Of a DNA stretch of 64,000 nt, positions 1,900 through 40,423 are shown one piece after another. Source of the DNA: Lingula anatina (Eukaryota; Animalia; Brachiopoda); assembly GCA_051362555.1 (NCBI GenBank), contig CM120644.1, positions 22,342,534-22,406,533 on the forward strand, written 5' to 3'. Every line of letters starts with the position of its first letter. Position 1 is the first letter of the stretch. The notes under the pieces were generated by a model. That model searched no databases. It was not told the DNA's origin and worked only from the letters and a program-made list of their open reading frames with translations. A program made the position numbers and the translations under genes.

Positions 1900-1962
<63 letters not shown>

Positions 1963-5679: not shown

Positions 5680-5733
<54 letters not shown>

Positions 5734-11836: not shown

Positions 11837-12106
11837 TGATTGATGAATGATAATATAATAAAAAATAGACATTGAGCACATGAAGAAAGTTCTTTATTTT
11901 AATTATTTGATTGGGAATTATGTTTAAAGATGTTTTGGAGACAGTTATTTTAACTGAAAACTGGTGCATGCATTCATGGAGACTGTATTAGTTATTATAT
12001 TTATGACTGAAAACAGGTCTGCCAGGACATGCATTCATTGAATATTTCTGGAACTTGACTACCTTAATTGCATGTGGATGGGTCATTTACAGAGACTGTC
12101 TACATA

Positions 12107-16384: not shown

Positions 16385-17375
16385 AGACAGTCTCAGTGGG
16401 TTAGATTAATGTATAGAAGCAGGTTCTATGTAAAACTTTGATCAGATTTGTGTTTTGTGAGATTGTTTATTATTATATTTATAAGTCTGGGTCACAAAAG
16501 TCCTGTTAAGACAACTAGAATAAAGAATTAGAAAACGAAAACTATTTATCATGATTTCGGAGCACAGCCAGAAGTACTTCCGGCTCAAGGTCACGACCTC
16601 GAATTTCCCACGCTTACGACCAATCACAGCAGGCTTCAGTCAGAATGAGATAGACGTCACGACTACACAGCGAAACTTGTCAGACATGTAAGTGCCGCCT
16701 GTCCATCTTTTCGGTACATGTACCGATCAAAAACAGAAAACGTAAAGCCCAAAACGCTCTTATACACGTAACCAACTTTGTGTGAGCACAAATATTGTCA
16801 TTTATTGTGAACAGGATAATATGATAATCAGACACACTTGAGACCTGTGAAGCACATACTCACGTGTCGAGGAGTAGTTTCGCCATTGCCTCGTATGTGA
16901 GTCCTAACTCAGCTTTAAGTGTCCTCCACCGCCCCACCTCCCTCCCAACATACACAGTCTGAGTGCTTCTTCGTCTGTCTCTAATTTTCTTTCGTATCTT
17001 TCGAACTGGAGTGGCTATTTTCTTTCGTCCCCTCTGGTCGCTCTCCTCTTCAAACTTGACGCGCGTCTGAGCCATGTTTGCTGTTTTGGCGCCAAATAGT
17101 AACATCCGGGTCTCAGCCGTAGTACTTCATTCATAGTAAACCGCGAGACTTAGCGAGAAATTGCGCGTTCTGAAGCCGTACTGTGAGGTGGTAGCTGAGT
17201 ATTTAAGACGAGTCGTCTTTTATTATTTAATGGAACTTAAAAACGGTATTAGGTAGCTTCATTTTCTGAACGGTTTTGGATAGGATATACCTTGGTCATT
17301 ATGGGGAAAATGGTGAGATTTCCAGGAAAATTCATTTTCGTGCTATTTTAAGGGTTTAACGCGCTGAGACTGTCT
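16385..17375. mobile_element. 991-bp Kolobok-type non-autonomous element carrying a short ORF
   Basis: TTAA TSD at 16381-16384 and 17376-17379. TIR AGACAGTCTCAG is perfect over 12 bp and 18/21 when extended. The empty site AAAGTTAAGGAATC is at about 5947-5960. Confidence 0.88.
16860..17075 (-). CDS. Short basic ORF or first exon inside the 991-bp element
   Basis: ATG in AACATGG context. The 71-aa product is basic and ends TVYVGREVGRWRTLKAELGLTYEAMAKLLLD at a GTGAGT donor-like site. Confidence 0.5.
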   Translation of the reverse strand: MAQTRVKFEEESDQRGRKKIATPVRKIRKKIRDRRRSTQTVYVGREVGRWRTLKAELGLTYEAMAKLLLDT

Positions 17376-18989
17376 TTAAGGAATCTAAATTTTCATTGCA
17401 TCTACCTGTAATAGAAAAGCAAGCTAGGAATGCTAGAAACCGTAGTCCGCTTCCCTTTACTTTGTACAGATGACATTCGTCCTAAATGCTTATGTGGCTT
17501 GTCTTGGATATCATAAGACGAATAGCATCGAACACGAGTCCCTTACCCTTTCCACAGACACACAGTTGAAGCCAGTGAAATGGTTATTTTACTTTTGTAA
17601 GCGGAAAGGGTCGGATACCATCTTGGGAATTTACTGAAGGGGAATCCGATGAGATTGCAACGCTTTGTTTACATTAAGTTCACTTTATCTTAACGAACAG
17701 TTACCTTAAAAACAATTCGTTCCGAGCAGTTGATGTTTATACCCCCAGGGGAGCTTTGTGTCATTCATCACAGTCATCAAACACCAGTTTTTTTTTTTTT
17801 TTTACCCTCATTTCTTCGTTGTTCGCAAAAGCAGGTACATGTACTTCGACTTCAAAGACTTTTTTCACTTTGCTGAACAGTAAAACAACAGAAAAGCTGT
17901 TTATTGGTGGAAATAAAGGTGGTATTATAACAAGAAAACCAGGAATTAAAATGTGAATAATTGAAGTAAATGTTTTAAAAATAAAAGGAGCTACCGCCGT
18001 AGTACTGGCTTTTCATGATTGCATACCACACTTAGAGAACAGATGTCTTTTTTGTATCAAGATGTTCAGGAGCAGCAGCAGCACTTATAGTTTTCGCCAT
18101 GAAGAAAGGAGACGGACACCTTCCAGATCTGTGACTAGTCATCCATGAGTAACACTACATATACATGGACCTGCAGAAACCAGGGTGCATATTCTTAACA
18201 AAGTGAAGAGCAACAACATGAATGTAGGTGATTTGATACATTAGTGAAAAGTTGATGAAAAGGAATGAAATGGCTGGCATTGGAGAAAAATCATTCAAAT
18301 GCCAGTATTGTGAAAAGAGTTTTAGTTTTGAAAGTTCTTGCAAACACCATGAAATGATCCACACTGGTGAAAAACTGTATAAATGTCAGAATTGCAAAAA
18401 AGGTTTTATTGGAAAATGGCATTGTATGCAGCACGAAAGGACCCACACTGGAGAAAAACCATTCAAATGTCAGTATTGTGAAAAATGTTTTCCTGTCAAA
18501 AGCTATTGTAGGAAACATCCCGCACAAAAATGCAGTAGTATCGAAGTAGCAAAGAAGCATTAACGCAGTAGTGGTGTGGAGCATATTTGCAGTAGAAATG
18601 CAGTAGAGCCTACTGCAATTCTACTTCAAAAATTACATAGGGTTGTACAGCGGAGGAGCATTAATGCAGTAGATTCGCAGCATGATTGAAGCGTGTTTCA
18701 AATATGCTAATTAGCTACCAAATCTACTCCGATGCAGTAGAGATAAAGCATTACGTTTATGCTGCACTGCATTATGCGCATCGGATACTTCAAAGATACT
18801 CAACAGAGGTAGATTTGAGGTATAAAGCAAAAAGCATGATGCTCGCACACTGCTCTGCGGAGGTAGATTTGGAGCATATTAAAATATTTTATTTGAATGT
18901 GTTATAATTTTACATCGTTCGCTGTCTTAATTACTTCTTACATTATAATTCTCACGGCAAAAATATTAAAATATATATGAGAAAAAAGC

Positions 18990-19835
18990 AACCCTCGCGG
19001 AGGTAGATTTTCAGTATATGAGAAAAAATTATGCTCGAGTACTGCTCCGCAGAGGTAGTTTTGGAGTATATGAGAAAAATCAATGCCCGTGTTATGCTTC
19101 GCGTTGGTTGATTTGGAGTATATGAGAAATAAACAATGCTCGCGTGCTGCTGCTCGGAGGTAGATCTGTAGTATATGAAAAAAAGGTATGCTCGAGTACT
19201 GCTCCGCGGAAGTAGTTTTGGAGTATATGAGAAATAAACAATGCTCGCGTGCTGCTGCTCGGAGGTAGATCTGTAGTATATGAAAAAAAGGTATGCTCGA
19301 GTACTGCTCCGCGGAAGTAGTTTTGGAGTATATGACAAAGAAAGCAATGCTCGCGTTATGCTTCGCAGTGGTAGATTTGGAGTATATGATTAATAATGCT
19401 CGCGTTATGCTCCGTGGAGGTAGATTTGGAGTATATGAAAAAAAAGCAATGCTCGCGTGCTGCTGCGCGGAAGTAGTTTTGGGGTATATGAGAAAGATAT
19501 CAATGCTCGCGTTATGCTTCGCGGTGGTAGATTTGGAGTATATGAGAAATAAATAATTCTCGCGTACTGCTCCGCGGAAGTAGATTTGGAGTATATATGA
19601 GAAAGATAGCAGTGCTCGCGTTATGCTTCGCGGTGGTAGATTTGGAGTATATGAGAAATAAACAATGCTCGCGTACTGGTCCAATTGAGGTAAATTTGGA
19701 GTATATGAGAAAGAGAGCAATACTCGCCTTCTGCTTCGCAGTAGTAGATTTGGAGTATATGAAAAAAAAACATGCTCGCGTACTGCTTCGCGGAGGTAGA
19801 TTTGGAGTACATGAAAAAAATGCTCGTGTACTGCT
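18990..19835 (+). repeat. Left subterminal tandem array, 52-53-bp unit, about 16 copies
   Basis: Unit approximately ATGCTCGCGTTATGCTTCGCGGTGGTAGATTTGGAGTATATGAGAAATAAACA, with starts at 19031, 19083, 19136, 19188 and onward. Locally it is organised as 105-bp dimers. Confidence 0.92.
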
Positions 19836-20165
19836 CATAAAAAAGACAGATTGAAGTTTCTTATCGTTTATTAAATACTGTTTTATACAAAATTTCACTT
19901 TAAAAAGACAGATTGTGAATATGATTTTTCTTGGTACATCAACCTTCTCCTTATAAGTGTGATCTGATCTGGTCCTAAAAGTAAAAAAAAAGTTCTGATA
20001 AGTTGATTGTTTTTTTTTTTTTTTCTGGGAATTCTTTAACTGAAATAGCAATCAAGATAATAAATAACAGCTTTTACCACTATGACTTTCATTAAGTGTT
20101 GAAAAATATTTTTTTTTTGTGAATAAAGGTTAGATAACAGCTCAAAACACACACCTATTGTTCTC

Positions 20166-21509
20166 TCATGGCAGATATCCCATCCATTCATTGTCTTCTG
20201 TGTCTTCACATGGGCTGCTACAAATAAAATAAAAACAATTGGAATCACAATTCCAGTACGTTTGATTGTTTTTTTTTTGTTCTATAATAGCAGCCAATAT
20301 ATTTAAAGCCACCTTTTACAACACTGCCTTTCATTAAGTTTTTTTATAAAAAGTGAGTACATATATACACACCTTTTTGTTTTTCTTGCTTTGCAGGAAA
20401 ATGCTGTAATTTTGCAGGCTATGGCCTGCCGCAGTTTGCCTGGGGTGGCTGGACTGCTTTGCGAACAGGTGTCTGAAACATACAATAAATCAAACAGATT
20501 AAGAAAAATTATATGTCGTTAATACTATATCTTTCACTTGCAACACTTGCTAATTAAAAAAAAAAACGATTCTTAACCAACATGTTTCCATTACTTTAAG
20601 GGTGTACATGCACTCAGACTATAAAAGTAGGTCACAAGTTATTTACCTATTATAGCTTTAATTATCCTGGGATTCAGCTGCTTTTTCCCCTCAGTAGAGC
20701 TAGTTAGAGTGCAGTTAGCCAGTTCTTCTCTGCTGAAGAAAACTGACATCAGCAGCCTAGCCGTCCTCAAACCATGTTGCACACTACCTTTCTTCACCTT
20801 CCCAGGTTTGAAACAAGAAACAAGGTCCGGGCGAGGAATATATACCGAACTGCCTGGGACCAGCTCAACCATCTAGTGAAAAGACATAATCATAAAAATG
20901 ATTTAAACTAATTGTACATACAAAACACATCTACAAATTAAGCAGAAAGGCACAAGATGGGTATGATAAATTTAATTAAACAACAAATCCCCAGGAATGT
21001 TGGATAGTGACATTTTACTTATCATCAAAGAGAAACACAAGCACCAAAGAATACATGGGCTAAAATAAAATTAACAATGACACATGACAATGGACATACT
21101 ATAAACAAGTTAGTATAATTATTAAAACACATACCTTGTATTTTTCTCCAATTTCCTTTGGTAAGAGACCTGGCCTGGGAATTTCATAATCATCCTCTGC
21201 AAACAAACACAAAATATATATTCCTTGTTTAGTATTTAAACTGGTACTCCATTCCATATGACCAGATTTCTGTTTTATAAGTTTAGTTATTAAAGCTTGT
21301 TATAAAAGCTGTTCTACTAACCTCAATTTTCTGGTATGTACACCGCATAATTTACATAAAGTTCATTTAGCAAGTTTGGCACTATTTAACAAGCATCATG
21401 CATGGGCAGTGCAGTGCTTTTTAAACTAGATTGACATGACAGTATGACACTAGTTTTAAATATGCTGTTTCCTGGAACATCTATTTAAGTAAAAGTTGTA
21501 ATATTAAGA

Positions 21510-21540
<31 letters not shown>

Positions 21541-24500
21541 CGAATACAAAAATAAAAAAAATTAAAAAAATATCTGTAAAACAACCTACCTATGAATTTA
21601 ATATGCTCCAATTGCTTTATTTTTTCCTGCAGTTTTTCCACCTCTGGAAATACAAGAAGCATAATTAAAATTTCAACAGTCGGGTTTATGGCTCGCACCA
21701 CCCCAAACTTTGATAATATGCTTTAAAGGATTGATACTAAAATATTAGGTTCAATATGTTTGCCACTCCACTTTCAAGGCCACAAATTACTATCAGAAAA
21801 AAATATATGTTGACATCGGCTACTTCCATTTCAAAATGCCTTAGGTACACTTAGACGATGGTCCAAGCTATTGCTCATAAAACAATTATTGAGTGCATTT
21901 TATTTAATATTTAATGCATTTGTGTTTGAGGTGTTTTAGTTAATAGTTTACTCAAATGGCTTGAAGTTATTGAAGCATCGAAGTTATACTCACCACACTT
22001 CAAACGCCTACAATTATCACAATCAGTACTTCTGGAAGTACAAATCATAACAATGGTTATTCATCCATATTACACCAATGGCTCACTATAAAAATCCAAC
22101 ACAATTACATTTTTGCTATTTTGTTGGTGGCACATTTAATGCCCTTACATATAATTGAAGAGATGTTCCCTTTTTGTTGTTGTTGGTTTTAATCTTTAGT
22201 AGCCTTATAATCATTTTAGAAATCACATCTCACCTTTGAGTCTCTTTGTTCATTTCACTTCTCTCCTCATCTCTGAAAATCATGACAAATTTTATTAATA
22301 ACTGAAATCTCTACAATATTGTGTCAATAGCAATTGTATTTTGGGTCTATATTGGCATGTTTGTCAGATGATGACAAAGGGAAATGTCTTCTGAAAAAAA
22401 AATTGTAATAGGGATGGAAAAATTTACCATATATTCTTTACCTTTAAAAATTCATAGCACAGTTATCTGTATGAGACTCAATTAACTAGTTATTATTGTA
22501 AAAAACAATATATGAATTTGTTACCTGAACTGTTGCCTTGGTTGTTTCTGGGCAATCTTGGGGTAGCCCTTAGCATTACAAGCTCTGCAAGTAATAAAAT
22601 GACATTATAAATATACCAGCACAGTAGCTATTGACACAATAGGAAATACACATCCAATCAGTCTTGATACCAAACTACTGACATACAAATAACACACCTG
22701 GATTACAGCAATTACATGCTTCTATTTTTATGCTGTTGTTTATCCAAAATTAAATCAAGATATTTACAACTTTTTAGTAACTTATCAAAATCTTGATCAG
22801 CAAAAATAAAACAGTAAAATTACTGATCATTTATACATAACATCACGTATTCTAACAGTAACTTACACAGTCCCCGCTCCGTCCAAAGACCTATACCTAT
22901 ATGAGAAAAAAGGGACGACTCTTTGAAGTGATCCTTTACTCAAATTTTAATGGCAAAAATGGAAGGACCGAATTGAGATACAAGACTGCAAATGTAATCA
23001 AGACAAATCTCAATCATAACAATAAAATAAATAATATTTATTTTAAATTGTCTACTACTACATATAAAGTTACTTACAAAGTCTCTTCTTCATCAGAAAA
23101 ATCTCCCAGCACCAAATCATATCTAAAATGTAGAAAAGTATTAAGTATTAGTTATTTTAAAGTATACCAGCAAAAATACGAAGATAGGATGACTCTCATA
23201 CACCTCATGTTTTAGGTAATGTTTGTGAGCATGTAAATTGTAACTTTAAAATATCAGGCGTGTTAACACTTTATCTTACACAATTCAACCCCAAAACTTT
23301 CTTACAAGCTCATGACAATACAATTTAAAGGTGAAAACTCACTCCACATCCCCTTCAGATTCTTGCCCAGCATTTCCTGCATTCCTTGTTTCTGATGATA
23401 TAGGCTCTGAGAATAAACACATACATGTTAAAGGAACAATGATTAAGAAAAATTCTCTGCATCTCTTCTATGTACACGTCTAATCCTTTGCAAACCCAAT
23501 TACATTTGAAACATTATGAATTTTTGGGGTTTTATTTCTTCTCACAAACCCTTGACCATCTGTCCAGCACATGTGAAATAAACATGCAATTTAATAAACT
23601 TAATGAATTTTGAGAATTTCATTTTTGATAAAATTACCTGTTTTCTTTCTATTTCCTGTTGTTTCACTCTCTCTATTAGCTTTTTCTTGATCACTCTCCT
23701 CGTCATTCCTTGTTATTCTAAAATTAATGGCAACTTTTTATCTATTATTATCTAATTAATGCAAATGTGTTTATCTGTTTGTCCTGACAATTATATTTCT
23801 CACGAAGGCAGTTTCTCTTCCTGCATTTATTTTCATTAGTAAATGGGTTTTCTCAATATTAATTCTATGATACACTTTGTTCTATTTTTATCAAGTTCAA
23901 CTCCTAATACCTCTGAAACTCCAAATCGAATTGGGCTTCCAGACTTTCAAATTTTCTCCTCCTGGCTTCTCTTCTTTTCTCTGCTAGTTCTTTCCTTTCA
24001 TCAATCTTCCTTTTTTTTGCTTCCTTTTTCTCTGATGCAGGTACTATAATAAACACAGAGATAGATTTTACACTTCTGTAAAAGAACAGTTAAGGTATTC
24101 ATGAAGCATTTCTAAAAAGAAATACCCCTATGCATTTTCTTTGGGAGTATGTATAATTTCTATTCTTCATCGTCTATATATGGTGGTTTTGGAATTTATT
24201 CCCCCTACATTTCTTCACATGAAAAATAATATTTTACATCCAATAAAATAGTTCAAAATTATACATAAAACGACATTTCGAAACATTACCTGGTGTCTTT
24301 TTATTTGGTCTTGTTGGTGGCTCTGAAAGTTAAGGTTAACACTGTACTTATAAGTACCTAAAAAACGAACTGATTTATAAATAAATGGCAGAGTGATTAA
24401 TTAATTGTAATTATCATTTTTGAATTTCATTTTAGTCTGGCACAATTCTCTGAACTAATGGATTGCTACATATTAATTGCTTAGGTGCATACAATCAACA

Positions 24501-25526
24501 GTTCAACATGTGACCTGATCCTCCTGTGGCCAGAAAAAATAAGTGAGGACAAATACATTTTTGAGTGTCATCTGACATGGCCTTAACTGTCATAAAAATA
24601 TCTAAGTACTGTATGGTTAACAAATGTAATCCTACAAATAAATGACACAATATGTATCTATGAGAGAAAAAAGATCTTTCTGGAAGCATTTCTTACCTTT
24701 ATTTTCTTTCTGCCCAGAAGTCAAATTTCTCAAAATCTTCCTCATATCTGCATCATTTGCTGAAAAAAAAGTGAAGAAATTTCAGTATTCCAAATACAGA
24801 CCTCCATTTTACCTTAGCCAAACCAACAAACATCTTACATTATCACATTTTCCAACCGTCTAGTCTTATAAACATGTAGGTGACATCTAATAAATCCAAC
24901 TGTTGTAAAGTCATATATGTCAAGCTTTTATTCTCCAATCCGGTGCCGCTGAATATTGCGCAAAAGGCTACAGCGCAACACCAGTCAATAATCTTGAAAA
25001 AATGAATGCAGATGCAAATGAACAAAGAGAACGGCCATTCCCTAGAAAATACACTAGCCAGCATGGAGGCTGAACAGACAATAAACATGTTGTGTCGATT
25101 TGTTAAGTCGTATCAATGATATTGATTATAAAGTAATTTATATACAATTGTTAATCGCCCTATTTTGTTGGTAAAACCGTTCCGTGTTATCACGTCGGGT
25201 TTCCAAGATGGCGGACGACTAATGGGTTTCAAGAAACATTTTTTTAGACATGCCACCAAAGTGTGGGTCTTAACATTTTACAAACCTTAGTGTAGGAAGC
25301 ATGTTGTCCATCTCAGCAGGAAAATTAATAAGATAACGAAAAACTTACCTCCTATATGCAATATCCTAGCGGGATAGTCTCCTGGAAAGCCCCGGCACTT
25401 AGCATGTATTATCTGGCCAATTTTATACTTCTCCAAGTCTATTCTTGGTCTTGCGATGGACAGTAGGGTGATAATATCTATTGGCGAATTGTCCTCCTGC
25501 CACTCCACTATAGCGTGTGTCACCAT
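20166..25526 (-). CDS. BEN-domain protein of the transposon (16 exons, about 420 aa)
   Basis: Phase-consistent GT-AG exons start near 25526, 24759, 24322, 24043, 23717, 23406, 23122, 22896, 22584, 22272, 22031, 21643, 21197, 20872, 20476 and 20217, giving one open frame to TGA at 20166-20168. The C-terminal segment TARLLMSVFFSREELANCTLT...KKQLNPRIIKAII...KLRQAIACK is BEN-like and is preceded by a coiled coil (VEKLQEKIKQLE). Confidence 0.8.
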
Positions 25527-28500
25527 GTTGGTATAACTTTTTCAACTTTACTCCGACCGTATCTACTATCTGAACTCGCCGTTGGTCTTCGAAATAACAA
25601 CCAGATTAAATTCATGTGCGCCTCGTTTTTATATGGAGACAACCAATCATGTGGCAACTGCGTCTCGATCTAATCACATGACGCCTCTTAGCTTCTTTAT
25701 TGTTACGCAATAAAGGCCATCTTATCTGGCGATCAATGCGACTTAATTGTCCTTACGGGAATTTAATAAGAAGAATTAAGTTATTTACCTGTCACACTAG
25801 TAGGCCTACTATAACAGGTAAATGCCCGAAATATGTGATGTAAGACAGGGAGTGAGGTACAAAATCTTGGAAATAATTTGCACAATGTGATCGTACTTTA
25901 TACAGGGAATTTTAATTATCTTTAAAAATCATGCATCAAAGTCAAAATAAACACGTCTTAATTGAAAATTGTCGCACAAAGATATACAAGACGGCCATAA
26001 TTGGGAATCGAGATAAGGGAGGTGTTATATACCTGTCACACCAGTACTTTTACAGGTAAATGCCAGAAATAGAGACTTGACCATCTTGGCAGCTCACCTG
26101 ACACTTGGATTTACACTTAGTAGGCGAGCTTGAGGGGACCTTTTAAAATTGTACGCACAGATTTTCAAAATTCCCAGCTACGGCTTAATGCACAGATAAA
26201 ATTAAAAGTGCCAAATATCATAGCTCAGTTTTCATCAGTAATAAAATCATCTGTTAAAGTAAAATACATTCCGGAAATTTAATTAATTTCCATTACATTA
26301 TTTCAGCCCGAACTAACGCTTTTTCTAGGATTGGGGTACAGGCTGTCAAAAATGGGGGGGGGGGGGGGGGAGTGGATAAAATGAAAAAAAAAATATTAAA
26401 AAAAAATAAAAAAAATTCAATGGGGAGGGAGGGTTACAAATAAGTAGTTTCGTCTTGACGGAATAACAGCGTGCACTAAATATTAAAGAAGTACCATTCA
26501 ACTGGGACGCATCATAAAAGCTGGACATGTCAAATTACTTTAAGATTTTTTTTTACAATTTCCACTGCCGCTCCGACAAGCTAAGACAAAGTTTAATTAT
26601 TTGCTTTTAATTGAAAAAAATGCCTCACTAGCCACCCTATTACTTTGGAGGGCTAAGCTGGAACAAGCCCATGTAAAATTCTTTGACGCTTCGCAGGAAA
26701 AATCTATTGTCATTTGTTTCTCTGGCTCGTTGTATAGCCCGATCTTCAGATTTTATCTAATGCCCCCAGGTCTGCTGGAACTGCTCTTTGAAAATAACGC
26801 ACAGACAGATTTTTACCTGAGATATATCAATTCAATTCAGCGAGAGCACGTTCGATACTTTCAAGACAAAAGCTACCAGAGAGCCGAAGGGCTCTTAACC
26901 TTCTAATAAAGAAGTAAAGGAAGTTCAGCTAGATTGACGATTAAAATAGGACTGTTGAAAGGAACTAGTATTGTTTACCTCAGTTGTGTGAAAGCAAACG
27001 AGAAGGGGGGTCAGAACATTGGTGCATATATAAATTATACAGAGGATTTGTACATTCAGATGACGTAAACGTACCATGTAGGTCTATTTCTTGAAAAAAC
27101 ACAGAATTTATAGAGAATATTATCATGGTTGGCCCAAAAAATTGCTCGCACAGTGCATTCGTGCGTATGCCTGGTTACACCCATGGGGGGGGGGAGTCGG
27201 CAGACCTCTCCCCCCCTCATCTTCTTCAAATGATCTTGGATCCGCCCCTGTAACCCAATTAAAATAAGTCAATATAACCGGCTGATGTTGGAATCTACGA
27301 TCCACAACTTGATAGAAAAAGGCATTTCTTTCTCATTTAAATTCTTTACTGGAAAATCTTTCGGCATTATTTTTACTTAAGTTTGGAGGTGTTGTAGAAC
27401 ATAGCCTATACTTGTACATAGGTAAAAATATGATTCATTGTACCACACGAAGCTTCATCTTAGTGCAAAAGAAAGAAACCTGTCTTTTGACCCGGGCGTA
27501 AAATAAACTTTCTTTTTATGTCTGCATGAGAAACGTGAAAGAGTTCGCTATAAAGTTATACCACAGTCGCAAGGATTAAAAATGCACTGTTGCATTCATC
27601 ATAGTCAACGAGTAACTTTGAGCGAGGTCGCCATTGGCTTAAACCCGGGGAGGTTTTGAAAAGCCATGACACCAGTGAGACCATAATTCCTAGATGATAT
27701 TCGGTTATGAGACTACCAGCTAGACATTGTATGAGAGGTCATAATACAAATGCACAGCAATAAGGTCCTGTATTTCAGTCACGACCCTCAGCTCCTAATT
27801 GATAAAATCGTGTAGCTCACATTCGGCCTTCATACTCAGTACGTGCCTTGCTTACAAACAACAAACTTAATATAAACCTAGGAAAGAGATTCCTCGAACA
27901 CGTAATTAGGGGTTTGCTGTTCCTGCAGCTTCATTAAGCATCAGTGTTGTGAACTATTTTCTACATATTTAAAAAAGCATAAATGTATATTCTCCTTAGT
28001 TAAGCTCAATCATATATTGGCAACATTAAACCATAACCTTCTTCGAAAACGTATGTAAGTAAAAATAACGATTGCATTGCTTGTCTGGAAGCATTTGTTT
28101 TTAAGATGAAGTTGTGGTTGAAGAAGGAGGTCCATTTCTGTAATTTATTGTTCATGTGTAGATTCCATTTATCGAGATTTATAAAATATTTTAAGAATAA
28201 AAAAACGAGTCAAATGAATATAAAGGGTGGCGCACGTAATCTCACAACAATGGGGTGGAGGAGAGGTTATATATAAATATATAATTACACGCATCTAGGT
28301 GTCAAATATGTTGTTTACAACAGTCTCTCCCTGTTCACGGTTGATGACGCTGAGATTTACAGTGTGAATCAATGATTAGATCTATCTGAGCATCGCCGAC
28401 AGGGAACTGTACATCAAAGAATGGTACTTAAGATTCGATTAATAGATAAGAGTGGTGTGTGGCTAAGTTTACTATGACACCTTGAAATCATAAACAGTAC

Positions 28501-29264
28501 GACAGGTACATTTCAGGTGACTGAAACGGAAGCAACCTAGCTACGCAAATTCTCATCTTTTGAGGTTTATTTTCCCTACACATTTCGTCATAGAATCGAT
28601 TTAGTTTGGTTAGCTCAAAATGATCCTTAGCTAAGGTTTATAGTAGATAAGTAAATCATACCGTTTCAAACAAAGCCACAATTCCTATTTCTTCTAAATA
28701 GGCATCGTGTTCTGTCTATTTCGTACAAGAGTTTTACGATTATGGGAACAAATGGGAAAGGTGCAAAGTTTTTTTTTATTAAAGTCTGCTGTCACAAAAT
28801 TTTAAAAAATCCACAATGAACGCTTACAAGTACTATAGAAGAACAATGTTCCTTTAAACAGTCGCAGTAAATAACTAAAACTAGATAATTAAGTTATTCG
28901 TAACATGCTCAAAGATGAAAGCTCTTCGTTGTGCGGAATAATAAAATAAAGGCGTCTTGTTAAAAGCAGTCTTTTAGATTATCTTAGTGAAGTCCTTGCT
29001 ACAGTAATGTCCAGTTAACAGGTAAAAAGGGCGCACTTCCCTCCTTATATACCAGTGGGTGCTGGAAAATTAAAGATTACTTCTGACCAATGACAGTCGG
29101 TCTACCCCAGTGACTCCTCCCGCACCCTACTCCAACCCACCCTACCCTACCCTACTACTTACCTGTACGCAAAATTATTGCCACAAGTTTAGTTGGACTA
29201 TTTTAAGCATTGCACAGGGATTTACAGCACTTGTGTTTGGTATCTTCGAGATAAGATATTTGGC

Positions 29265-30052
29265 ATGGCTGGACAAAGGAAAAGTATGAAAGGTGCATAC
29301 ACCGGTCTATCACGGACAACTAAGTGGAGAAAAAAAATTAACAAACACGGCGTCCCTGAACAGATAGCACCACCCTCATGCACAACTGACACATTGAGTT
29401 CAGAATATGCAGACATCGTTGATTTTGAAGATGTGCACGAGGTTTTGCCTCAGTCTGATGAGTTGACAGAGAGTGAGCAACCGCACGAATTCGACGACGT
29501 ACAAACTGACGAAGATAAGCCATTGTATGAGGGATGCGGTCTTACTGTAGCCAGTAGCATGTTACTTATAGTCACCTTCGCTTTACGACACAACTTAACC
29601 GGAGTCGCGTTAAGTGACTTGCTTGCTTTGATAGAAATTCACTGCCTGGCCGATAATCTTTGTCGCAGCACGATGTCGATGTATAGACAATTCTTCCAGA
29701 CACTAAAGACACCGCTCATTTTCAATTACTATTGCGAAAGTTGTTATATGGATTTAGGACTCTCCCAGCCGGATGGATGTTCAAACTGCAATGGCACCGT
29801 GAAACATTTTCTGAAGATTCCGACTGGGAACCAGTTGGAAAAAATTCTAAGCGGTAAGTGATTTTTTTAAAAAATCAATAGAGTCTACTATTTTGTCGGT
29901 TAATTATACGGGTTTAGGCCTATATAGTTCGAGTTTGTCTACTGGTATGTGAATATCATTGGTAAACTTAGTTTGTAGATTTAAACTAGGTCTAATCCAG
30001 ATTTAATGAAAGTGCAATGTGTCACGCTTCGTTATCGTGCAATTATTTTATT

Positions 30053-30099
<47 letters not shown>

Positions 30100-30943
30100 T
30101 AATCCTGTTTTACAAGTGTTAAAAAATTGCTTGTTGATCAAGGTTAGCCAGATAATATTCCAAAATTGACCCCTCTGTCATTAAATCTCTGAGAGTATTT
30201 AAAAAAATCAGAATTTTTAGCTTCTAATTGGCTTTCGATTAGACCTTCGATTAGCTGTTTAGGCTCACGGCATTCTTGCGCACTCTTGTGATATTCTTCA
30301 GAAAAAAAAAAATCAAGACGAGGACATGGCATTTCGTGAACGATCGTTTATTAATAATGAACACAAAAAGAAGATGATTAATGTTTATTTTGTTAGTACA
30401 TTGGGTGGTTAAATTTGATGCTGATATAAGATCTAAGTAACAACAATAATTTAGCTCGTCTTGGATCGTCTTGGTCTGTAATGGTCAAAAAGTATAAACT
30501 AAAGCGGCGATATATCATTTAACTTTTATGTCAAATTTCAGCACAGTTTAAAGATTATGACATCGTGTGTAAAAGAAGGTGCGGTAATACGAATTATTTT
30601 TCTTAAATATGTGCTCCCAGCTAACAAAAGAGTTGCGTTTGAAAAATGTTTTCAAGGAAGCTGTTGAAATAAGCACTGTTCAGGGCTATTCCGTGGTATA
30701 TTTTTTGGTGGCGTTTTGGTTAGGCATGCCATTGGCACTTCAAAAGAAATTAAAAGAAATATAATAATGGTATGTCCACTAACGAAATGTTTGCCCTAGG
30801 TTAATAAGTTATATCAATGCAAACCCTACAATAGCAAAGGGAAAAGTCATGGTAGCTTAACTGTTAATTTTAATATTAATCCTCCAGTATGTGTTGGAAT
30901 CTAATTTTCAAAATGTAGGGCACGGTGGATAGCCCATACCGTG

Positions 30944-30985
<42 letters not shown>

Positions 30986-33900
30986 GTTTGGAAGGACATT
31001 TGACCCTTCAGGTGAACATATTAAAAAAAGTTGAAAGACATTTCTTTAATATTTATTCCTCTGTATCGAAGTTATATTTAAGCAAAAACTTAGGTAAAAT
31101 AAAAGTTACTTAAAAATTATGTAATATAATAAATAATTAGCATCTCAGCAGGACGTGAAATGGACATGGAATTTTAACTTTTAGCTTTAACACCAAAGCT
31201 CTGTCTGTGGAGATATTTTTAAAGTCGGATACATCTTTAAATAGTATTTCGGACATGAAAGAGGTAATCTAACCACATTTATTCATTATATACAATAAAG
31301 TGTTTAAATTAAAATAACTTCAAAAGTATTCATTCAAATGAAGTGTTTCACAGTTTAGAAATTCTTTTATATATGATGCATTTTAATTAAAATTATCTTG
31401 AAAGACATAAGGGTTGATGCATTGGTCACCTGACCTCTTATAGTCCAATCAAAATGCCTCATGTCATCCCAGTGCTAGGTTTCATGTTTAATGCTTATAT
31501 AATTTAATTCAATTTCTCATTGAAGTAGTTCTAAGCAAATTTTTTTTATATCTTGTTTGCTCAGCATGTTTGAGGATATTATGAAGTTATAAGTTGTTAG
31601 CTTTTGTAGTTACTAGTACTGAGAAAATCATCTTGGAAGGACAAATTGATATGAATCCATTATTTTATAATCAAATACATATGAATCTAACGCACTTGAC
31701 TAAATGTAAGAGAGAAGTTATATTTAATGTATATAGCCTTTATTGTTTAAAATGATCACTATTATGAAAAATATATCAAAAATACCACGGAATGACCCTG
31801 ATGTTTATCCTCCAAGAAGTAATGAACACAATATTACTTTATTAAGTATAACCTGTTTATCACTTTTTGTTACCATCAGTCCAAAAATAATAAAATCCAT
31901 GGTGTCAGTTGTCAGCTTAACCTAACCCCAATCTCTAATGAACCGCTAGGTGGAGAACAAACAGCACAAAGCTCTTGCAGCCCATACAGTTTGTAAATTT
32001 ATTTCATCATATATTATTACAGTTTATAGAACCTGCTGGTTACATTTATCAGAATAACATTAACAGTGTAGAACATTGGGAAAGCTTTCTCCTAATGTTT
32101 ACAGACAGTTTAAAATAGTGGCAACATTATCAATATATTCTGTTTTAGCTGGGGCAAAATCACATCAAATTTTTATGGCAAACTTTTTTATTTTGGTATC
32201 CCTTTAAAGTTTTAAAAATACTTTGTTGGTTTTTAAATCTTTTTTTAAGTAGACTACCTTTAAGAAGTTACTATTAAAATGGCTCATGACCCTTTTATTT
32301 TTTACAATTTTTAGAATAATTTTCTAAATTTAGGTTCATGTCATTATTTTTGTGGGCAACATTAGGCCTACATACTTCTAAATAAATTTACATGCACAAA
32401 TTCACTTTTTAGGACCAGATGTTCTTCAAGAACTAAAACAAACCAAAGAAAGCTTACGACATCGAGATGGGTCTATAAGGGATGTGTATGACGGTCAACT
32501 TTACAAAGACCATTTCAACACCTCTGGATATTTTCAAGGTTTGTACAGAAAACTTCATTGTATAGAATTATTGTACTGTATTTTACTCATGATTGTTTTG
32601 AATTTAGAAGGTCTTTTAAAAATCAGACCTGAGATAATCTGCCCCCTGGCTGTCACTGTCATTGGTTAAACTAGGAAGCCACTGCATAAAACCAAGTAAA
32701 TTAATATAAATATGTATATGTAATACTAATATGTATTTTCAGGATGTTCCAGTGAGCTCAATGAGCTACATTTATCCTTACAAGTGAACACTGATGGAGC
32801 AGCTTTATTCCGTTCATCAAAGTTTAGTGTGTGGCCACTGTATGCTGTGATCAATGAGTTACCCCCTAAGAAAAGGTATGACATGATTAATCATCAAGAT
32901 TTACTCCACTCAAAATGCAAACACAATAAAAAGGGGAAAAGTTAAAAAAAAAACACCTAAGAGTGAAATATGCATCAGAAGAAAACGTTCCTATACATAA
33001 TTTAAAATCACAAAAAATTATTTGTATATGAAATTTGCTGTGTTATTACTGCATAAAATTGGACTATAGAGAAGCCTATTTTTTGTTTTTTATTCAGTCC
33101 TTCTTGTGACATAACCAAAATGACCTACAGTTGCCATTGAGGAAAAAGTGTCAATTGTTTAAGTCAGTAATTAATTGCCTGGTATTGTAAAGCAAATCTT
33201 GTACCTTACTTATGGTCTGTTAATTTCAGTACCACCAGGATTACATTTAATTTAAAATGTTTATGTGAAAGAGACACCCTTGCTTAAATCTAGTATTAAA
33301 CAATGAGCACCTGCATTATTGAGCATGTGGAATTATTCAAGTATGTTATTAGGGCTTTGATCCTACAATCTAAAAATATATTTTATGTCCTATTTCTGCT
33401 TTGCTTTCTTAGGTACACTAGAGATAACAGGTTGTTTCTTGGCTTATGGTTTGGTTATCAGAAACCAAATATGAAACTTTTCCTGGGATCTTTGTTGAAT
33501 GAATTCCATTCATTATTTGAAGGTATTTATAACCATCTTAATGCTATTTCGCTTATCAAATCCATAGTTGTAATATATACAGCAATATATAGTATTACAT
33601 CTCAAAAATTGGTTTCATGTACATCAGGCTTTTTTGTTTGTTCATAATAGAGATATGAGGTATAGATAAGTTTGGTTTAAACCCTTTTACAGATGCTGCA
33701 AACACACTCATAAATCTGACTTTAGTGGTACCGCACTAGGGTATTTAACATGACAAACATTTAATAAGGCTGGCATTTCATTATTATTATTTTTCACATT
33801 CTAATAAATAAATGATTTTCAGTTTCAGTGAAGTACTTGGCATGAGTTAATTATTTTTTGTTTATATTTAAGGTGTGAGCATGACCATCACTTCTGTACC

Positions 33901-35368
33901 AACAAAAGTGCGCGCCATCATAATTTCATCAGTAGCAGATGCTCCTGCACGATGTCTCATGAGTGAAATGGTGCAGTTTAATGGAAACTTTGGGTGCCCA
34001 TGTTGTTATAGCAGAGGTGAAACTTGTTTTTTAAGTGAGCGTGGAAAATCACACATCTATCCTTTTGAAACTGACCAAGAATCAGGCCATGCACAGACTC
34101 GAACACATAAGGATACGCTGAAATATGCTGCTGAGGTTGAGAGAAACTATTTGAATGGAAAGCGTAGAGAAGTGCAACCAATAATGGGTGTCAAAGGAGT
34201 GTCTATGATGTCATTTTTGCCTAAATTTGATATTATTAGAGGCCAGAGTATTGATTATATGCATTGCGTTCTTCTCGGTTTAGTGAAAATGATGATCTCT
34301 TTATGGGTCGGAGCAGACACAAGGAATGAAAAATGGTCACTATATTCTATGATCGAGACAGTGAACATGAGATTGAAAAACATGGCCCCAAACAGACTCA
34401 TTTCCCGCATGCCTAGAGGAATTGATAATTTTGGAGACTGGAAGGCATCTGAGTTTCGTACCTTTCTCATATTTTATTCATTGCCTGTTTTGTATGATAT
34501 ACTCCCACCAGAATTTCTTGCTCATTTTACTCATTTGGTCATAGGAACTTATTTACTTCTTAAGTCTTGCATAATGAAAAATGACTTAGACAAAGCAAGT
34601 TACCATTTCAAAAAATTCAATATAGGTTTAGATAAACTTTATGGAGAAAGGTACTGTACGTTTAATGCGCATTCTTTACTACATTTGGTTTCAAAAGTCA
34701 AAGATCTGGGTCCACTGTGGGCCCACAGCTGTTTTTTTTATGAAAGCTTGAATGGCGACCTCAGGAAGCAGTTTCACGGCACTCAGCAAGCAGAAATGCA
34801 AATCGTCACTGCGGTTTGCATACAGCAGAAATTACCTCAGCTTATTGAAAAAGAGAAGGATGGTGCCGTGCAGGCCCTGCTGCAACAAATGACAAAGCGG
34901 TCAAGTTTAAAATTTTCAGGCCGTATAGGGAATGCGTCTCACATACTAGGACCTAGTTCTGATTTTGTACCTCCCACTTATATTGCCCACATTTTGACAA
35001 GAATTGTTGGTGCGGTTTTTAAGTGTGCAAAATTTTTAAGAGTTTACCAGAAAGGATTTGTTTTTTGCAGCAAGTCGTACAAGGCAGTAAAAAAAAGAAA
35101 TTCCTTTACTGCAAAGTGGGAAGAGGGCTTTTGTGAAATTCAATATTTTATCAAATGCGGTGCTGTTAATGGTTACAGATATTTTGCAATTATTAAAGAA
35201 CTGAATGAATGTAGTGAAAATTTATTTCTGTCATGTCATATTAAGAAAGTTATTTCTGGGAAAATTAAAGTTATAGATATTAGCCAGTTAGAAGAACCGT
35301 TAATGTATATGTGTAGTGATTCTAAACAATTTGTGGCTCAATTCCCTAATTTTGTAGAGAAAGATTAG
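29265..35368 (+). CDS. EnSpm/CACTA-type DDE transposase (Transposase_21/DUF4218-like), 5 exons, 817 aa
   Basis: Exons 29265-29853, 32413-32538, 32743-32875, 33413-33522 and 33873-35368 splice in frame (2454 nt). Motifs: DVYDGQLY, LQVNTDG..LFRSSKFSVWP..INELPP, ADAPAR, GCPCC, IDYMHCVLLG, WKASEFR, NAHSLLHL, GPLWAHSCFFYESLNG. Confidence 0.92.
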
Positions 35369-35756
35369 TAGTTGTAGTTATATCTTACTGGCAGTTTTTT
35401 TTTTTTTTAATTTATTATTATTATTTTTTTGCAATTTGTTTATTCACTTGGTTAAGAGTATTTTGTTAACGTATTATGAGGTCTTACACTTGTTGAAAAA
35501 CTCTATCTGTGAGCATATTCCGGTATAAGTAAACAAGTAAACTAACTATTTACAATAAATAGTAGTGCTCATCTAAGATTGCACAGTATGAAACCTCTGT
35601 CGTTTCTTTTTACTTTTCTGGATGATTGACGTTCAAAGGGACAACAGTATTTAAATGAATTGCATAGGCCAATTCTATTCATTATTAGAAAGTCTCCGAA
35701 GTTTGTAAGACAAAATTGAAGATGATCGAGCGTGAATAAGTAGACTGAACACGCCG

Positions 35757-36915
35757 ATCATTTAAGCAATGTTTTTGCAGTTGATTTGCAGTAGTAACCT
35801 TTTCCCCAACAAAACGACAAAGTTCTCGTAGTAGAATTGAAGTATATAGAAACGCGCCAATTATTTAAGCAATGTTTTTGCAGTAGTAACCTTTTCCCCA
35901 ACAAAACGACAAAGTTCTCGTAGTAGAATTGAAGTAGATAGAAACGCGCTTATCATTTAAGCAATGTTTTTGCAGTAGATTTGCAGTAGTAACCTTTTCC
36001 CCAACAAAACGACAATGTTCTCGTAGTAGAATTGAAGTAGATAGAAACGCGACGATCATTTAAGCAATGTTTTTGCAGTAGATTTGCAGTAGTAACCTTT
36101 TCCCCAACAAAACGACAAAGTTCTCGTAGTAGAATTGAAGTAGATAGAAACGCGCTTATCATTTTAGCAATGTTTTTGCAGTAGATTTGCAGTAGTAACC
36201 TTTTCCCCAACAAAACGACAAAGTTCTCATAGGAGAATTGAAGTAGACTGAACACGCCGATCATTTAAGCAATGTTTTTGCAGTAGATTTGCAGTAGTAA
36301 CCTTTTCCCCAACAAAACGACAAAGTTCTCGTAGTAGAATTGAAGTAGATAGAAACGCGCTTATCATTTAAGCAATGTTTTTGCAGTAGATTTGCAGTAG
36401 TAACCTTTTCCCCAACAAAACGACAAAGTTCACGTAGTAGAATTGAAGTAGATAGAAACGAGCCGATCATTTAAGCAATGTTTTTGCAGTAGATTTGCAG
36501 TAGTAACCTTTTCCCCAACTAAACGACAAAGTTCTCGTAGTAGAATTGAAGTAGATAGAAACGCGCCGATCATTTAAGCAATGTTTTTGCAGTAGATTTG
36601 CAGTAGTAACCTTTTCCCCAACAAAACGACAAAGTTCTCGTAGTAGAATTGAAGTAGACTGAACACGCCGATCATTTTAGCAATGTTTTTGCAGTAGATT
36701 TGCAGTAGTAACCTTTTCCCCAACAAAACGACAAAGTTCTCGTAGTAGAATTGAAGTAGATAGAAACGCGCTTATCATTTTAGCAATGTTTTTGCAGTAG
36801 ATTTGCAGTAGTAACCTTTTCCCCAACTAAACGACAAAGTTCTCGTAGTAGAATTGAAGTAGATAGAAACGCGACGATCATTTAAGCAATGTTTTTGCAG
36901 TAGATTTGCAGTAGG
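35757..36915 (+). repeat. Right subterminal tandem array, 102-103-bp unit, about 11 copies
   Basis: Unit ATCATTTAAGCAATGTTTTTGCAGTAGATTTGCAGTAGTAACCTTTTCCCCAACAAAACGACAAAGTTCTCGTAGTAGAATTGAAGTAGATAGAAACGCG..., with starts at 36055, 36158, 36260, 36363 and onward. Confidence 0.95.
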
Positions 36916-38655
36916 ATTGAAATGCCATAAAAGCGACAGACTCAGAGCAGTAGAAACGAAGCAAACCAATGGTTATTAAACCAAGCTGCTTAATTTCTAC
37001 TTCGATATGAAGTATATTTAAAGTAGAAGACTGCTATCGTAACGCATGCTACTTCGAAACTGCTGCACGCAGAGTAGAAATGCAGTATTGTACTACTGCG
37101 GCGAAGCATTATGCTTCCTTTCTACTGTGATTTTATGAAGCATGGTTGCAGTAGAATGCTACTTCTGGGAAGTATATACTGCATCCATACCTCAAATCGA
37201 AGCAGATTTGAGGCATGCTTGCAGCGTAATTGCAGTAGTCTACTGCGCTGGAGCATCTACTGCGTTTTCGTGCGGGATGAAATGATTCACACTGGAGAAA
37301 AACCATTCAAATGCCAGTATTGTGAAAAAAGTTTTACTGTCAAAAGCTATTGTATAAAACATGAAATGATTCACACTGGAGAAAAACCATTCAAATGCCA
37401 GTACTGTGAAAAGCGTTTTACTTTCAAAAGTCTGTGTAAACAACATTTAATAGTTCACACTGGAGAAAAGCCATTCAAATGCCAGTATTGTGATAAGAGT
37501 TTTAGTCACAAAAGAACATGTATAAAACATGAAAAGATTCATAGCGGAGAAAAACCATTCAAATGCCAGTACTGTGTAAAGAGTTTTACTTTCAAAAGTC
37601 AGTGTAAACAACATGAAATGGTTCACACTGGAGAAAAGCCATTCAAATGCCAGTTTTGTGAAAAGAGTTTTACTTGCAAAAGTCGGTGTAAACAACATGA
37701 AATGATTCACACTGGAGAAATGCCATTCAAATGCCAGTATTGTGATAAGAGTTTTAGTGTCAAAAGCGCACGTGTACGACATGAAAGGACCCACACTGGA
37801 GAAAAACCATTCAAATGTCAGTATTGTGAAAAGTGTTTTAATGTTAAACATAAGTGTACACAGCATGAAATGATTCACACTGGAGAAAAGCCATTCAAAT
37901 GCCAGTATTGTGATAAGAGTTTTAGTGTCAAAAGAACATGTATAAAACATGAAATGATTCACAGTAGAGAAAAACCATTCAAATGTCAGTATTGTGAAAA
38001 AGGTTTTATTGAAAAACAATGTTGTATAGAACATGAAAAAACTCACACTGACCAAAAATTATTCAAATGCCTGCATTGTGAAAAAAGTTTTAGTGTCAAA
38101 AATAAATGTGAACAACATAAAATGATTAACACTGGGGTTTCATCTCTGCCTATGAAAAAGGAACCTCAAGAAGAGGATAATCTGTATATGACAATGGTTT
38201 CACTACAGTCTATAAAAATGGAATTCAAAGATGATTATATGCCACATGGGACAAAAGTAGAGATGGAAGCTTATACAGAAACCAAAGTCAAAGTCGAGTT
38301 AAATGATGACAATGCTCCAGACGTGAGACCTGAGATCTATCCAGTAGCAATGTTTAGAAATGTGTTTGCAGACACTGATCAGTGATGATTGATGAATGAT
38401 AATATAATAAAAAATATACATTGAGCACATGAAGAAAGTTCTTTATTTTAATTATTTGATTGGGAATTATGTTTAAAGATGTTTTGGAGACAGTTATTTT
38501 AACTGAAAACTGGTGCATGCATTCATGGAGACTGTATTAGTTATTATATTTATGACTGAAAACAGGTCTGCCAGGACATGCATTCATTGAATATTTCTGG
38601 AACTTGACTACCTTAATTGCATGTGGATGGGTCATTTACAGAGACTGTCTACATA

Positions 38656-39192
38656 CCAGGGTTGATTGATAAGTAGTGAGCCTCATATAGAAGGGGTACA
38701 CATTTTACAAGTATTTTTCTTTATTTTTCAACATGGCCTCCTTGAATATCTATACACTTTTGCCAGCAAGTTTTGAGAGCCTCTATGCCACTTTTATAGA
38801 AGCCCCTCTCTTGGCTGTTCACAAACCCTCTACTTCACGTATGATGTCATCATCTGACACAAAGTGAGTACCTGAAAGGGCCTTTTTCAATTTGGGAAAT
38901 AGATAATAGTCAGAGGGAGGAAGATCAGGCAAATAAGGTGGATGTTCTATCAGTTCAAAGCCACACTCGTTGATTGCAGCCACGGCAATTACAGACTTGT
39001 GAGCAAGAGCATTGTCCTGGAGGAACAGTACACCTTTCCTGAGCTTTCCGCTGCCTCGTGGACATAGACTAACCAAATGACACCAAACTTCGGCTACACA
39101 CCTTTAAATAGTCAGGGAATAGAAGAGCTGAAAAGGGATATCCCTGCTTAACCCCTTCCACACAAGGCTCACTACTTATCAATTAACCCTCG
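38656..39192 (-). mobile_element. Deleted mariner element, copy 3 (essentially identical to copy 2)
   Basis: Same TIRs and the same 85-aa fragment as 12270..12527, at an offset of 26,549 bp. Confidence 0.93.
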
Positions 39193-39343
39193 TATATCAG
39201 ACACTTTATTGACTGAAGGAGAAGTAAAATTCTTCTGTTGGCCTGCATGGAGAACAGAAAAAGGGGGAAAACTTTGTTCTGATCTTCCAAAGATTACTTT
39301 TTTAAGAAATCTGAATGCTCCCTCTGCAGCCTTTGACTGTGCA

Positions 39344-39390
<47 letters not shown>

Positions 39391-40423
39391 CATAATATGG
39401 CAGACCATCTATGGTTATGTAATAAAACGAAACATTCTTTGAAATAAAATATGATTATTAATAGTGTGTCTTTGTACTTTACTGCATCAAAATATTGTCA
39501 GTTATTCAATTCATTAACTTGCAATGATGGCACTAAAAGTTAAGGAAAATAAATTTTTTATAGCATCTACCTGTAATAGAAAAGCAAGCTAGGGATGCTA
39601 GAAACCGTAGTTCGTTTCCCCTTACTTTGTACAGATGACATTCGTCCAATATGCTAATGTGGCTTGTCTTGGGTATCAATAGACGAATAGCATCGAACAC
39701 GAGTCTCTTACCCTTTTCACTGACACCATTGGTAACACAGTTGAAGCCAGTGAAATGATTCTTTTACGGTTGTAAGCGGAAAGGGTCAGATACCATCTCT
39801 AAAATTTACTGAAGGATGTTTCCGAGGGGAATCAGCTGATATTGCAACGCTTCGTTCACATTAAGTTCACTTCATCTTCACGAACAGTTGCCTTAAAAAC
39901 AATTCATTCTGAGCAGTTGTTGTTTATACCCCAGGGGAGCTTTGTGTCATTCATCACTGTGATCAAACATCAGATCTTGTTTTTTTTACCCTCATTTCTT
40001 CGTTGTTCGCAAAAGCAGGTGCATGTACTTCGACTTCAAAGATTTTTTTCACTTTGCTGAACAGTAGAACACTGGAAATAAAGGTGGTATTATAACAAGA
40101 AAACCAGGAATTAAAATGTGAATAATTGAAGTATAAGTTTTTTTTTTAATTAAAGGAGCTACAACCGCAGTACTGGCTTTTTGTGAATGCATACCACACT
40201 ATGAGAACAGATGTCTTTCTTGTAACAAGACGTTCAGGAGCAGCAGCAGCACTTATTGTTAACGCCATGAAGAAAGGAGACAGACGCCTGCTAGTTCTGT
40301 GACAAGTCATCCATGAGTAACACTACATATACATGGACCTGCAGAAACCAGGGCATATATTCTAAAACTAAGTCGAGGGCAGCAACACGGATGTAGATGA
40401 TTTGATAGGTCAATGAAAAGTCG

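Follow-up and report, generated by a model that had tools for sequence, protein, structure and literature searches.

The 64,000-nucleotide stretch of the Lingula anatina genome analyzed here (assembly GCA_051362555.1, contig CM120644.1, positions 22,342,534 to 22,406,533; hereafter, the window) harbors a complete transposon that carries two divergently oriented genes, one encoding a transposase and the other a partner protein with a Tudor-like and a BEN domain. The element occupies positions 18519..37276 (18,758 bp), and its ends, AT|CCCGCAC at 18519 and GTGCGGG|AT at 37276, are flanked on both sides by a 2-bp target-site duplication, AT (18517..18518 and 37277..37278). The flanks joined with a single AT are identical in 60 out of 60 bases to the empty site in a paralog at 10700-10759, which confirms the exact ends and the AT duplication proposed in an earlier sequence-only reading of this stretch. 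The inverted ends quoted in that reading, CCCGCAC..GTGCGGG, are also present, but the imperfect terminal inverted repeats (CCC...GGG) extend beyond those 7 bp, with 18 out of 20 terminal bases matching between the left repeat (18519..18538, plus strand), which includes a GCAGTAG motif, and the right repeat (37257..37276, minus strand). Removal of the element restores an open frame in the host C2H2 zinc-finger exon that it splits (18237..38385, plus strand). The second zinc-finger copy is 99.46% identical to the host copy over 2,976 bp (9777-12751 versus the element flanks), and may have arisen by recent tandem duplication or represent the alternative haplotype, placed in tandem by the assembly. 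Because of this identity, either the insertion is younger than a very recent duplication or the copies are haplotypes, and under either origin the insertion is, as judged from its flanks, young. The frames are intact and only one of the two 99.5% identical copies holds the element, which may indirectly point to active cut-and-paste transposition. No similarity was found between the element interior and the remainder of the window, and an Rfam scan of the element returned 0 matches.

The transposase gene (29265..35368, plus strand) is modeled with five predicted exons (29265-29853, 32413-32538, 32743-32875, 33413-33522, and 33873-35368), in which 4 out of 4 introns are GT-AG and the frame is open over 817 amino acids. 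The partner gene (20154..25526, minus strand) is modeled with 15 exons and an open frame of 408 amino acids. The start codons of the two genes are 3,738 bp apart, in agreement with the divergent pair separated by 3.7 kb that had been described previously, and the spacer between them (25527..29264) is likely a bidirectional promoter region. Both genes had also been considered to be spliced; this holds for the 3′ half of the partner, where the joints are seen in RNA reads, whereas the transposase introns and the six 5′ introns of the partner are predicted from the genomic sequence.

Of the protein domains that the sequence-only reading had assigned, BEN exceeds its Pfam cut-off, whereas Transposase_21 (E-values of 0.021 and 0.084) and DUF4218 (E 0.0071) fall below theirs on single window exons; three full-length relatives of the transposase exceed the Transposase_21 cut-off. 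A homolog search with the last exon revealed 35 longer homologs from scallop, oyster, thrips, sea bream, and metagenomes, all of which carry PF02992 and/or PF06869 (PF02992 in 33). Residues D256, D342, and E610, as well as C361/C364 (CxxC) and H586/H590 (HxxxH), are invariant across 11 aligned proteins. A DDE triad with CxxC and HxxxH inside an insertion domain is the signature of EnSpm (CMC superfamily) transposases. Judged by its sequence, the element is an animal EnSpm/CACTA-like (TRC) transposon. Fold prediction was run on L034, a colinear intronless relative with the same partner and 265 identical residues out of 764 aligned positions (mean predicted local distance difference test score 79.6). 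The model displays a RAG1/Transib-like core at residues 177-735 (Z 16.3, root-mean-square deviation 4.7, 464 aligned) and a BAH-like C-terminal domain (Z 9.8, root-mean-square deviation 3.9, 118 aligned). Since the model aligns to RAG1 only from the dimerization region onward and its first 166 residues are mostly disordered, no extra end-binding domain is apparent in the prediction. The BAH-like C-terminus of the transposase, like the N-terminal Tudor-like domain and the coiled coil of the partner, goes beyond the features recognized earlier. Two transposase relatives (P0033 and P0034) have a fused SET domain (PF00856) according to a precomputed Pfam column, and the closest named transposase relative (P0001) and a BEN relative (P0089) are both Pecten maximus genes with nearby LOC numbers, each on a contig of 33.9 Mb.

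The partner gene is supported by its gene model, RNA joints, read strand, and structure prediction. Reads of four same-species RNA runs were examined over positions 19860-22980, i.e. the 3′ half of the gene. In two poly(A) runs, 133 out of 138 and 80 out of 86 reads matched at 99% or more, with a single orientation that fits a minus-strand transcript, the 3′ end of which lies near 20154. Seven of the 14 introns were seen as GT-AG joints in RNA reads, and an eighth was indicated by loose ends running into the next upstream exon. Compared with the RefSeq model of a near-identical copy, the 408-residue model shows 30 gap columns. The remaining two runs provided 29 and 30 reads, mostly 90-95% alike, and one of these runs contained two of the same introns; since many of the 90-95% read changes match the Lingula proteins P0037/P0038, sister subfamilies exist in Lingula and are transcribed.

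The predicted layout of the partner protein comprises a Tudor-like domain, a basic helix, a disordered linker, a CxxC motif with a coiled coil, and a BEN domain, and the structural model of the near-identical RefSeq protein agrees with this layout: it starts at the N-terminus with a small barrel, continues through a long basic helix into a disordered linker, and ends in a coiled coil, preceded by CxxC, and a BEN domain predicted with confidence. The BEN domain is of type I (20373..20872, minus strand; exons 20872-20647 and 20472-20373) and matches Pfam PF10523 at E 1.4e-5 (25.7 bits versus a cut-off of 23.2); a Lingula anatina protein in RefSeq matches its exon at 100% identity. Sequence matches in the PDB were NACC1, the nearest, and BANP, and the top Foldseek matches were Insv, NACC1, Bsg25A, BANP, and BEND6 (template modeling scores of 0.6-0.8 by target), including DNA-bound structures of Insv and NACC1, which are the nearest solved structures. 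The Tudor-like beta-barrel is encoded by exon 1 (25349..25526, minus strand) and is conserved across the family. Tudor or PWWP proteins make up 19 of its 20 best sequence matches in the PDB, but these are individually weak (E 0.48-1.6), as are the structural matches (Foldseek E 0.35-1.6; Atlas template modeling score of about 0.5). A homolog search with the Tudor-like alignment yielded no protein of 269-2000 amino acids at E 1, which is weak evidence, and an Atlas feature search on this domain gave no usable match. Atlas features match a chordate cluster named BEND6 at 0.91. Full-length relatives with both Tudor-like and BEN domains were found in limpet, scallop, clam, and salamander (6 out of 29 long matches). 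For limpet, four accessions from three contigs give one and the same protein, as expected for a mobile gene, and the salamander (Pleurodeles) protein P0064 represents a vertebrate case of the same layout.

For a survey of the gene pairing, an alignment of 31 transposases was searched against metagenome contigs, and the best 80 of 389 relatives were kept; grouped at 90% identity, they form 57 clusters. All 10,848 six-frame open stretches, together with reversed decoys, were searched with two profiles, one for the BEN exon and one for the first exon of the partner. For the first-exon profile, three seeds were hand-picked from weak matches (E 0.3-0.44) in the expected position, so that the result is circular for those three; the next round added 17 matches at E 0.004 or better, with no decoy below 0.01. 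All 37 partner-exon matches lie upstream of the transposase and on the minus strand, i.e. head-to-head, and no reversed decoy was obtained at E 0.01. A partner exon (first or BEN) was present in 19 of the 57 clusters, and a second profile added L010 (20/57). Sorted by upstream span, it was found in 17 out of 23 clusters with at least 2 kb, in 13 out of 17 with at least 3 kb, and in 11 out of 11 with at least 4 kb; both Tudor-like and BEN exons were detected in seven clusters. The paired transposases are only 39-57% identical among themselves and to that of the window, yet the partner orientation is the same. Distances of the Tudor-like exon track those of the transposase (Mantel r 0.52, p 0.0005, n 17), and the nearest neighbors of BEN and transposase agree in 8 of 11 cases. 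The ratio of nonsynonymous to synonymous divergence (dN/dS) of the first exon was 0.08-0.10 in the four unsaturated pairs of six, and BEN exons showed a lower proportion of nonsynonymous than of synonymous differences (pN < pS) in 4 out of 4 pairs, with a dN/dS of 0.42 in the sole unsaturated one. Pfam confirms 4 of the 10 sister BEN exons, two of them above the cut-off. In the 80 loci, which lie on short contigs, no complete CCC...GGG element with a target duplication was found. Between the first and second partner exons of L026 (2138-2452, minus strand), there is a weak OTU-protease-like match (E 0.004).

On these comparisons, the partner gene is a regular component of a broad element family, placed head-to-head with the transposase, co-inherited with it and under purifying selection. 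The co-occurrence in sister elements that is expected under the sequence-only reading is thus borne out, and a one-off capture is rejected because the head-to-head linkage recurs, the distances co-track, and selection is purifying. Two features could still be read as those of a passenger, a host gene captured once or merely flanked by chance: the 15 exons are host-gene-like, and BEN proteins lacking a detectable Tudor-like start are common among the long matches (6 of the 29 have such a start). However, the gene keeps one orientation beside highly diverged transposases in 20 of the 57 clusters, its exons are under purifying selection, and sister subfamilies are present in Lingula, so that the passenger explanation is largely refuted and appears very improbable.

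The sequence-only reading had also placed arrays of about 1 kb at each end of the element. Arrays of 842 and 1,167 bp do exist, but they begin 0.48 kb (left) and 0.36 kb (right) inward from the element ends, and their cores are not inverted. The left tandem array (18995..19836, plus strand) consists of 16 copies of a 52-bp unit with a GTAGATTTG core, and the right one (35748..36914, plus strand) of about 11 copies of a 103-bp unit with two GCAGTAG motifs each. The units are mutually unrelated except for the GTAGATTTG core (9 copies on the left and 10 on the right), which runs in the same direction at both element ends; the version of the motif in the left array, G(G/A/T)GTAGATTTG, is related to GCAGTAG. 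Dispersed (G/C)(C/A)AGTAG motifs occur in both orientations in the left subterminal zone (18519..18994; 9 copies, 7 forward and 2 reverse; shuffle mean 0.19, maximum 2) and in the right one (36915..37276; 9 copies, 3 forward and 6 reverse, including inverted pairs; shuffle mean 0.31, maximum 2). GCAGTAG is located in both inverted repeats, in both orientations in the two terminal zones, and twice per unit in the right array, with a forward count of 32 at the ends and in the arrays versus 0 in the 15.8-kb interior. CGCG is found 19 times in the left array, 8 times in the right array, twice in the 15.9-kb interior, and 0 times in the terminal zones, and the observed-to-expected CpG ratio is 1.46 and 1.22 in the left and right arrays versus 0.37-0.78 in the interior.

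Among 62 loci, the two highest downstream densities of GCAG[TC]A are those of the nearest transposase relative, L001 (57% identity; support 100/100 in a 35-row tree), and of its twin L003, and both loci show a putative end similar to that of the window element. Both have 0 CGCG downstream, which weakens this second candidate, CGCG, as a family-wide motif. A reading of CATG by the BEN domain, as in NACC1, does not fit this element, as the arrays hold 2 (left) and 0 (right) CATG. The motifs differ in other families: one clade has ACATAT, L065/L074 have AAGATC, and the ends of L040 have ACATGT (12 on the left, 10 on the right, and 1 between). L040 (1-560 and 6100-6840) is a sister element in which the Tudor-like exon is accompanied by a weak BEN exon, and the motif in which its ends are rich is the one reported for the NAC1 BEN domain.

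The interpretation that we favor, with a probability of roughly 55%, is a Harbinger- or TnpA-like division of labor between the transposase and an oligomeric BEN protein, in which the partner would bind repeated motifs at the ends of its own element and help the transposase to recognize and pair them. Both genes would be driven from the 3.7-kb spacer. The partner would oligomerize via its coiled coil and bind many motif copies via BEN, GCAGTAG being a better candidate than CGCG, and would bring both ends into contact with each other and with the transposase; nuclear import of the transposase-partner pair may be mediated by its basic stretch, as in Harbinger. The RAG1/Transib-like transposase would then cut at the CCC ends and integrate with a 2-bp stagger. 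The Tudor-like domain of the partner and the BAH-like domain of the transposase may serve as readers of histone marks, so that binding could also protect the ends from silencing, as proposed for TnpA. Both steps of this argument, from linkage to binding and then on to synapsis, are modeled on three precedents: in Harbinger, a Myb-like protein contacts both the transposase and a 9-bp subterminal motif (PMC9710019); TnpA, which recognizes motifs clustered at the Spm termini, acts as a demethylation-dependent activator (bioRxiv 10.64898/2026.08.24.746577); and BANP, which has both a coiled coil and a BEN domain, contacts DNA in oligomeric form, selecting unmethylated CGCG (PMC11472053).

Several observations weigh against this division of labor. 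NACC1, the nearest solved BEN domain by sequence, is reported to bind CATG, which is scarce in the window arrays. The downstream motif profile is only weakly correlated with the transposase tree (r 0.12, p 0.03, n 38), covariation of BEN and motif is not separable from shared descent, and BEN-exon and transposase distances are not significantly correlated (r 0.26, p 0.07, n 11). Moreover, 6 of the 10 sister BEN exons have no Pfam BEN match and rest on the purpose-built profile. No partner was detected at E 0.01 in the 2.4-4.0 kb upstream of the transposase in clusters L067, L077, L044, L055, and L047, although the spacer of the window element itself measures 3.7 kb, L044 has a mariner-type insert, and L055 a weak match. 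The L015 cluster retains Tudor and linker exons, with no BEN exon detectable in 8.8 kb; in this copy (L015:3700-5333), foreign-looking repeats stand in its place. Finally, GCAGTAG lies inside the terminal inverted repeat, which the transposase must contact, so that the transposase may itself be the reader of the motif.

This last point also leads to another explanation, which we regard as possible but unlikely: the transposase alone would read GCAGTAG, and the partner would be a transcriptional or anti-silencing regulator that acts on the CGCG arrays or the divergent promoter, outside the cutting complex. Such a role would account for the confinement of CGCG to the tandem arrays and for their raised CpG ratios, and it has parallels in the choice of unmethylated CGCG by oligomeric BANP (PMC11472053) and in the demethylation-dependent activation by TnpA (bioRxiv 10.64898/2026.08.24.746577). 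Nevertheless, the nearest sister element has a GCAGTA-type motif and 0 CGCG downstream, and tandem amplification of one unit can by itself yield high CGCG counts. It is improbable that the partner acts away from the element ends altogether, either by tethering the transpososome to host chromatin, thereby affecting target choice, or by manipulating host genes, with the arrays as unrelated by-products. The Tudor-like and BAH-like folds are those of chromatin readers in solved structures, the units of the two arrays are unrelated, and several sister loci are without a strong downstream array, all of which would suit such a function; however, just one insertion site is known here, and the dispersed end motifs are strongly enriched and common to the nearest sister, which calls for a multi-site binder.

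The surroundings of the element (window 1-18500 and 37277-41800) form a cluster of tandem C2H2 zinc-finger genes with an 84-bp period. Within the cluster, a further near-identical pair of blocks (2566-3939 versus 13732-15105, 99.5%) indicates a recent tandem duplication or an assembly haplotype duplication. A 45-bp sequence at 860-904, 1365-1409, 12104-12148, and 38653-38697, with inverted and direct copies, resembles a small non-autonomous transposon that was co-carried with the zinc-finger duplications. Long inverted repeats at 45821-48356 (63 bp at 94% and 177 bp at 81%, around 2-2.4 kb) and at 45292-45580 (86 bp at 90%, around 117 bp) are possibly further DNA transposons, and a G-rich 49-bp minisatellite of about 6 copies is located at 52596-52977.

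To our knowledge, partner genes for a separate DNA-binding protein are textbook examples in just two groups, plant En/Spm and PIF/Harbinger; if a Tudor-BEN partner is conserved across many animal EnSpm-like families, this would represent a third independent solution. NAIF1 and MADF genes were domesticated from Harbinger. We tentatively raise the possibility, which we consider doubtful at present, that this lineage of animal EnSpm elements made its own counterpart of TnpA out of a BEN chromatin factor and that the mobile Tudor/coiled-coil/BEN gene was the source from which transcription factors and insulator proteins of the BEN type (BEND5/6, Insv/Elba, BANP, and NACC) were domesticated in animals. 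If so, the BEN domain of each family would be tuned to its own end motif, and the families would constitute a natural library of BEN-DNA pairs. Transposon genes may underlie many of the 'uncharacterized BEN proteins' annotated in invertebrates. The questions thereby opened to testing are how animal CACTA-like elements recognize their ends and evade silencing, and how the patchily distributed BEN transcription factors originated. The window copy is a good test object, because its frames are open, its ends are exact, its partner is expressed, and candidate motifs are defined.

Compared with known systems, the element belongs with the animal TRC elements (SmTRC1 of Schistosoma and those of Aedes and Tribolium), which have CCC ends, a 2-bp duplication, and Transposase_21 (DeMarco 2006, PMC1636069). 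Shared features are the CCC-core inverted repeats, the 2-bp duplication, Transposase_21, internal tandem repeats, and spliced genes; the TRC products, however, are described as alternatively spliced from one unit, whereas the window element has a separate divergent Tudor-BEN gene, and its 18.8 kb exceed the TRC size of about 4.7-9.2 kb (PMC1636069). The element class itself was described in 2006. Our literature search found no description of a BEN partner in EnSpm/CACTA elements, although a Repbase or Dfam annotation remains possible. The available portions of the Spm preprint (whose supplementary fig. S6 may list BEN-like accessory domains), PMC13547354, and PMC10027918 contain no mention of a BEN domain, and the available portion of PMC8887127 does not contain the string 'transpos'.

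The type I BEN factors (Insv, NACC1, BANP, and BEND6) share the BEN fold with the partner, and BANP also its combination of coiled coil and BEN; they are fixed host genes, none of which is described as transposon-borne in the available portions of the sources (PMC8887127, PMC11472053). Unlike these factors, the window partner is without a BTB domain and has a Tudor-like start instead. The RAG1/Transib/ProtoRAG group is similar in the core fold of the L034 transposase model, which differs from RAG1 in having a BAH-like C-terminal domain and no match to the nonamer-binding region. RAG1/Transib/ProtoRAG elements have a 5-bp duplication and a RAG2 partner, both of which are absent from the window element. 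Plant En/Spm has CACTA ends and a 3-bp target duplication, whereas the ends of the window element are CCCGCAC and the duplication is 2 bp. The two have in common the transposase superfamily, a second protein, and clustered family-specific motifs at both termini (bioRxiv 10.64898/2026.08.24.746577). The DNA-binding domain of TnpA is a double helix-turn-helix derived from a transposase, and TnpA-like proteins are reported in flowering plants only (Sasaki et al., bioRxiv 10.64898/2026.08.24.746577); the folded domains of the partner, encoded by a head-to-head gene, are BEN and Tudor-like, with no tandem helix-turn-helix. Because of this difference in domain, the likeness to TnpA would be convergent, and since the ends also differ and the transposase-derived double helix-turn-helix is confined to flowering plants, the element is not a plant TnpD-TnpA system. 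The partner, proposed by the sequence-only reading as a TnpA analogue, is an analogue at most. PIF/Harbinger, the two-gene layout of which has been called contrary to most other superfamilies, likewise combines a transposase with a separate DNA-binding protein of 300-400 amino acids that has a chromatin-factor fold, a subterminal motif, and a basic stretch resembling a nuclear localization signal; it differs in its transposase superfamily, in Myb/MADF instead of BEN, and in a 3-bp instead of a 2-bp duplication (PMC9710019). In its separate-gene layout, the Lingula element is closer to PIF/Harbinger than to TnpA.

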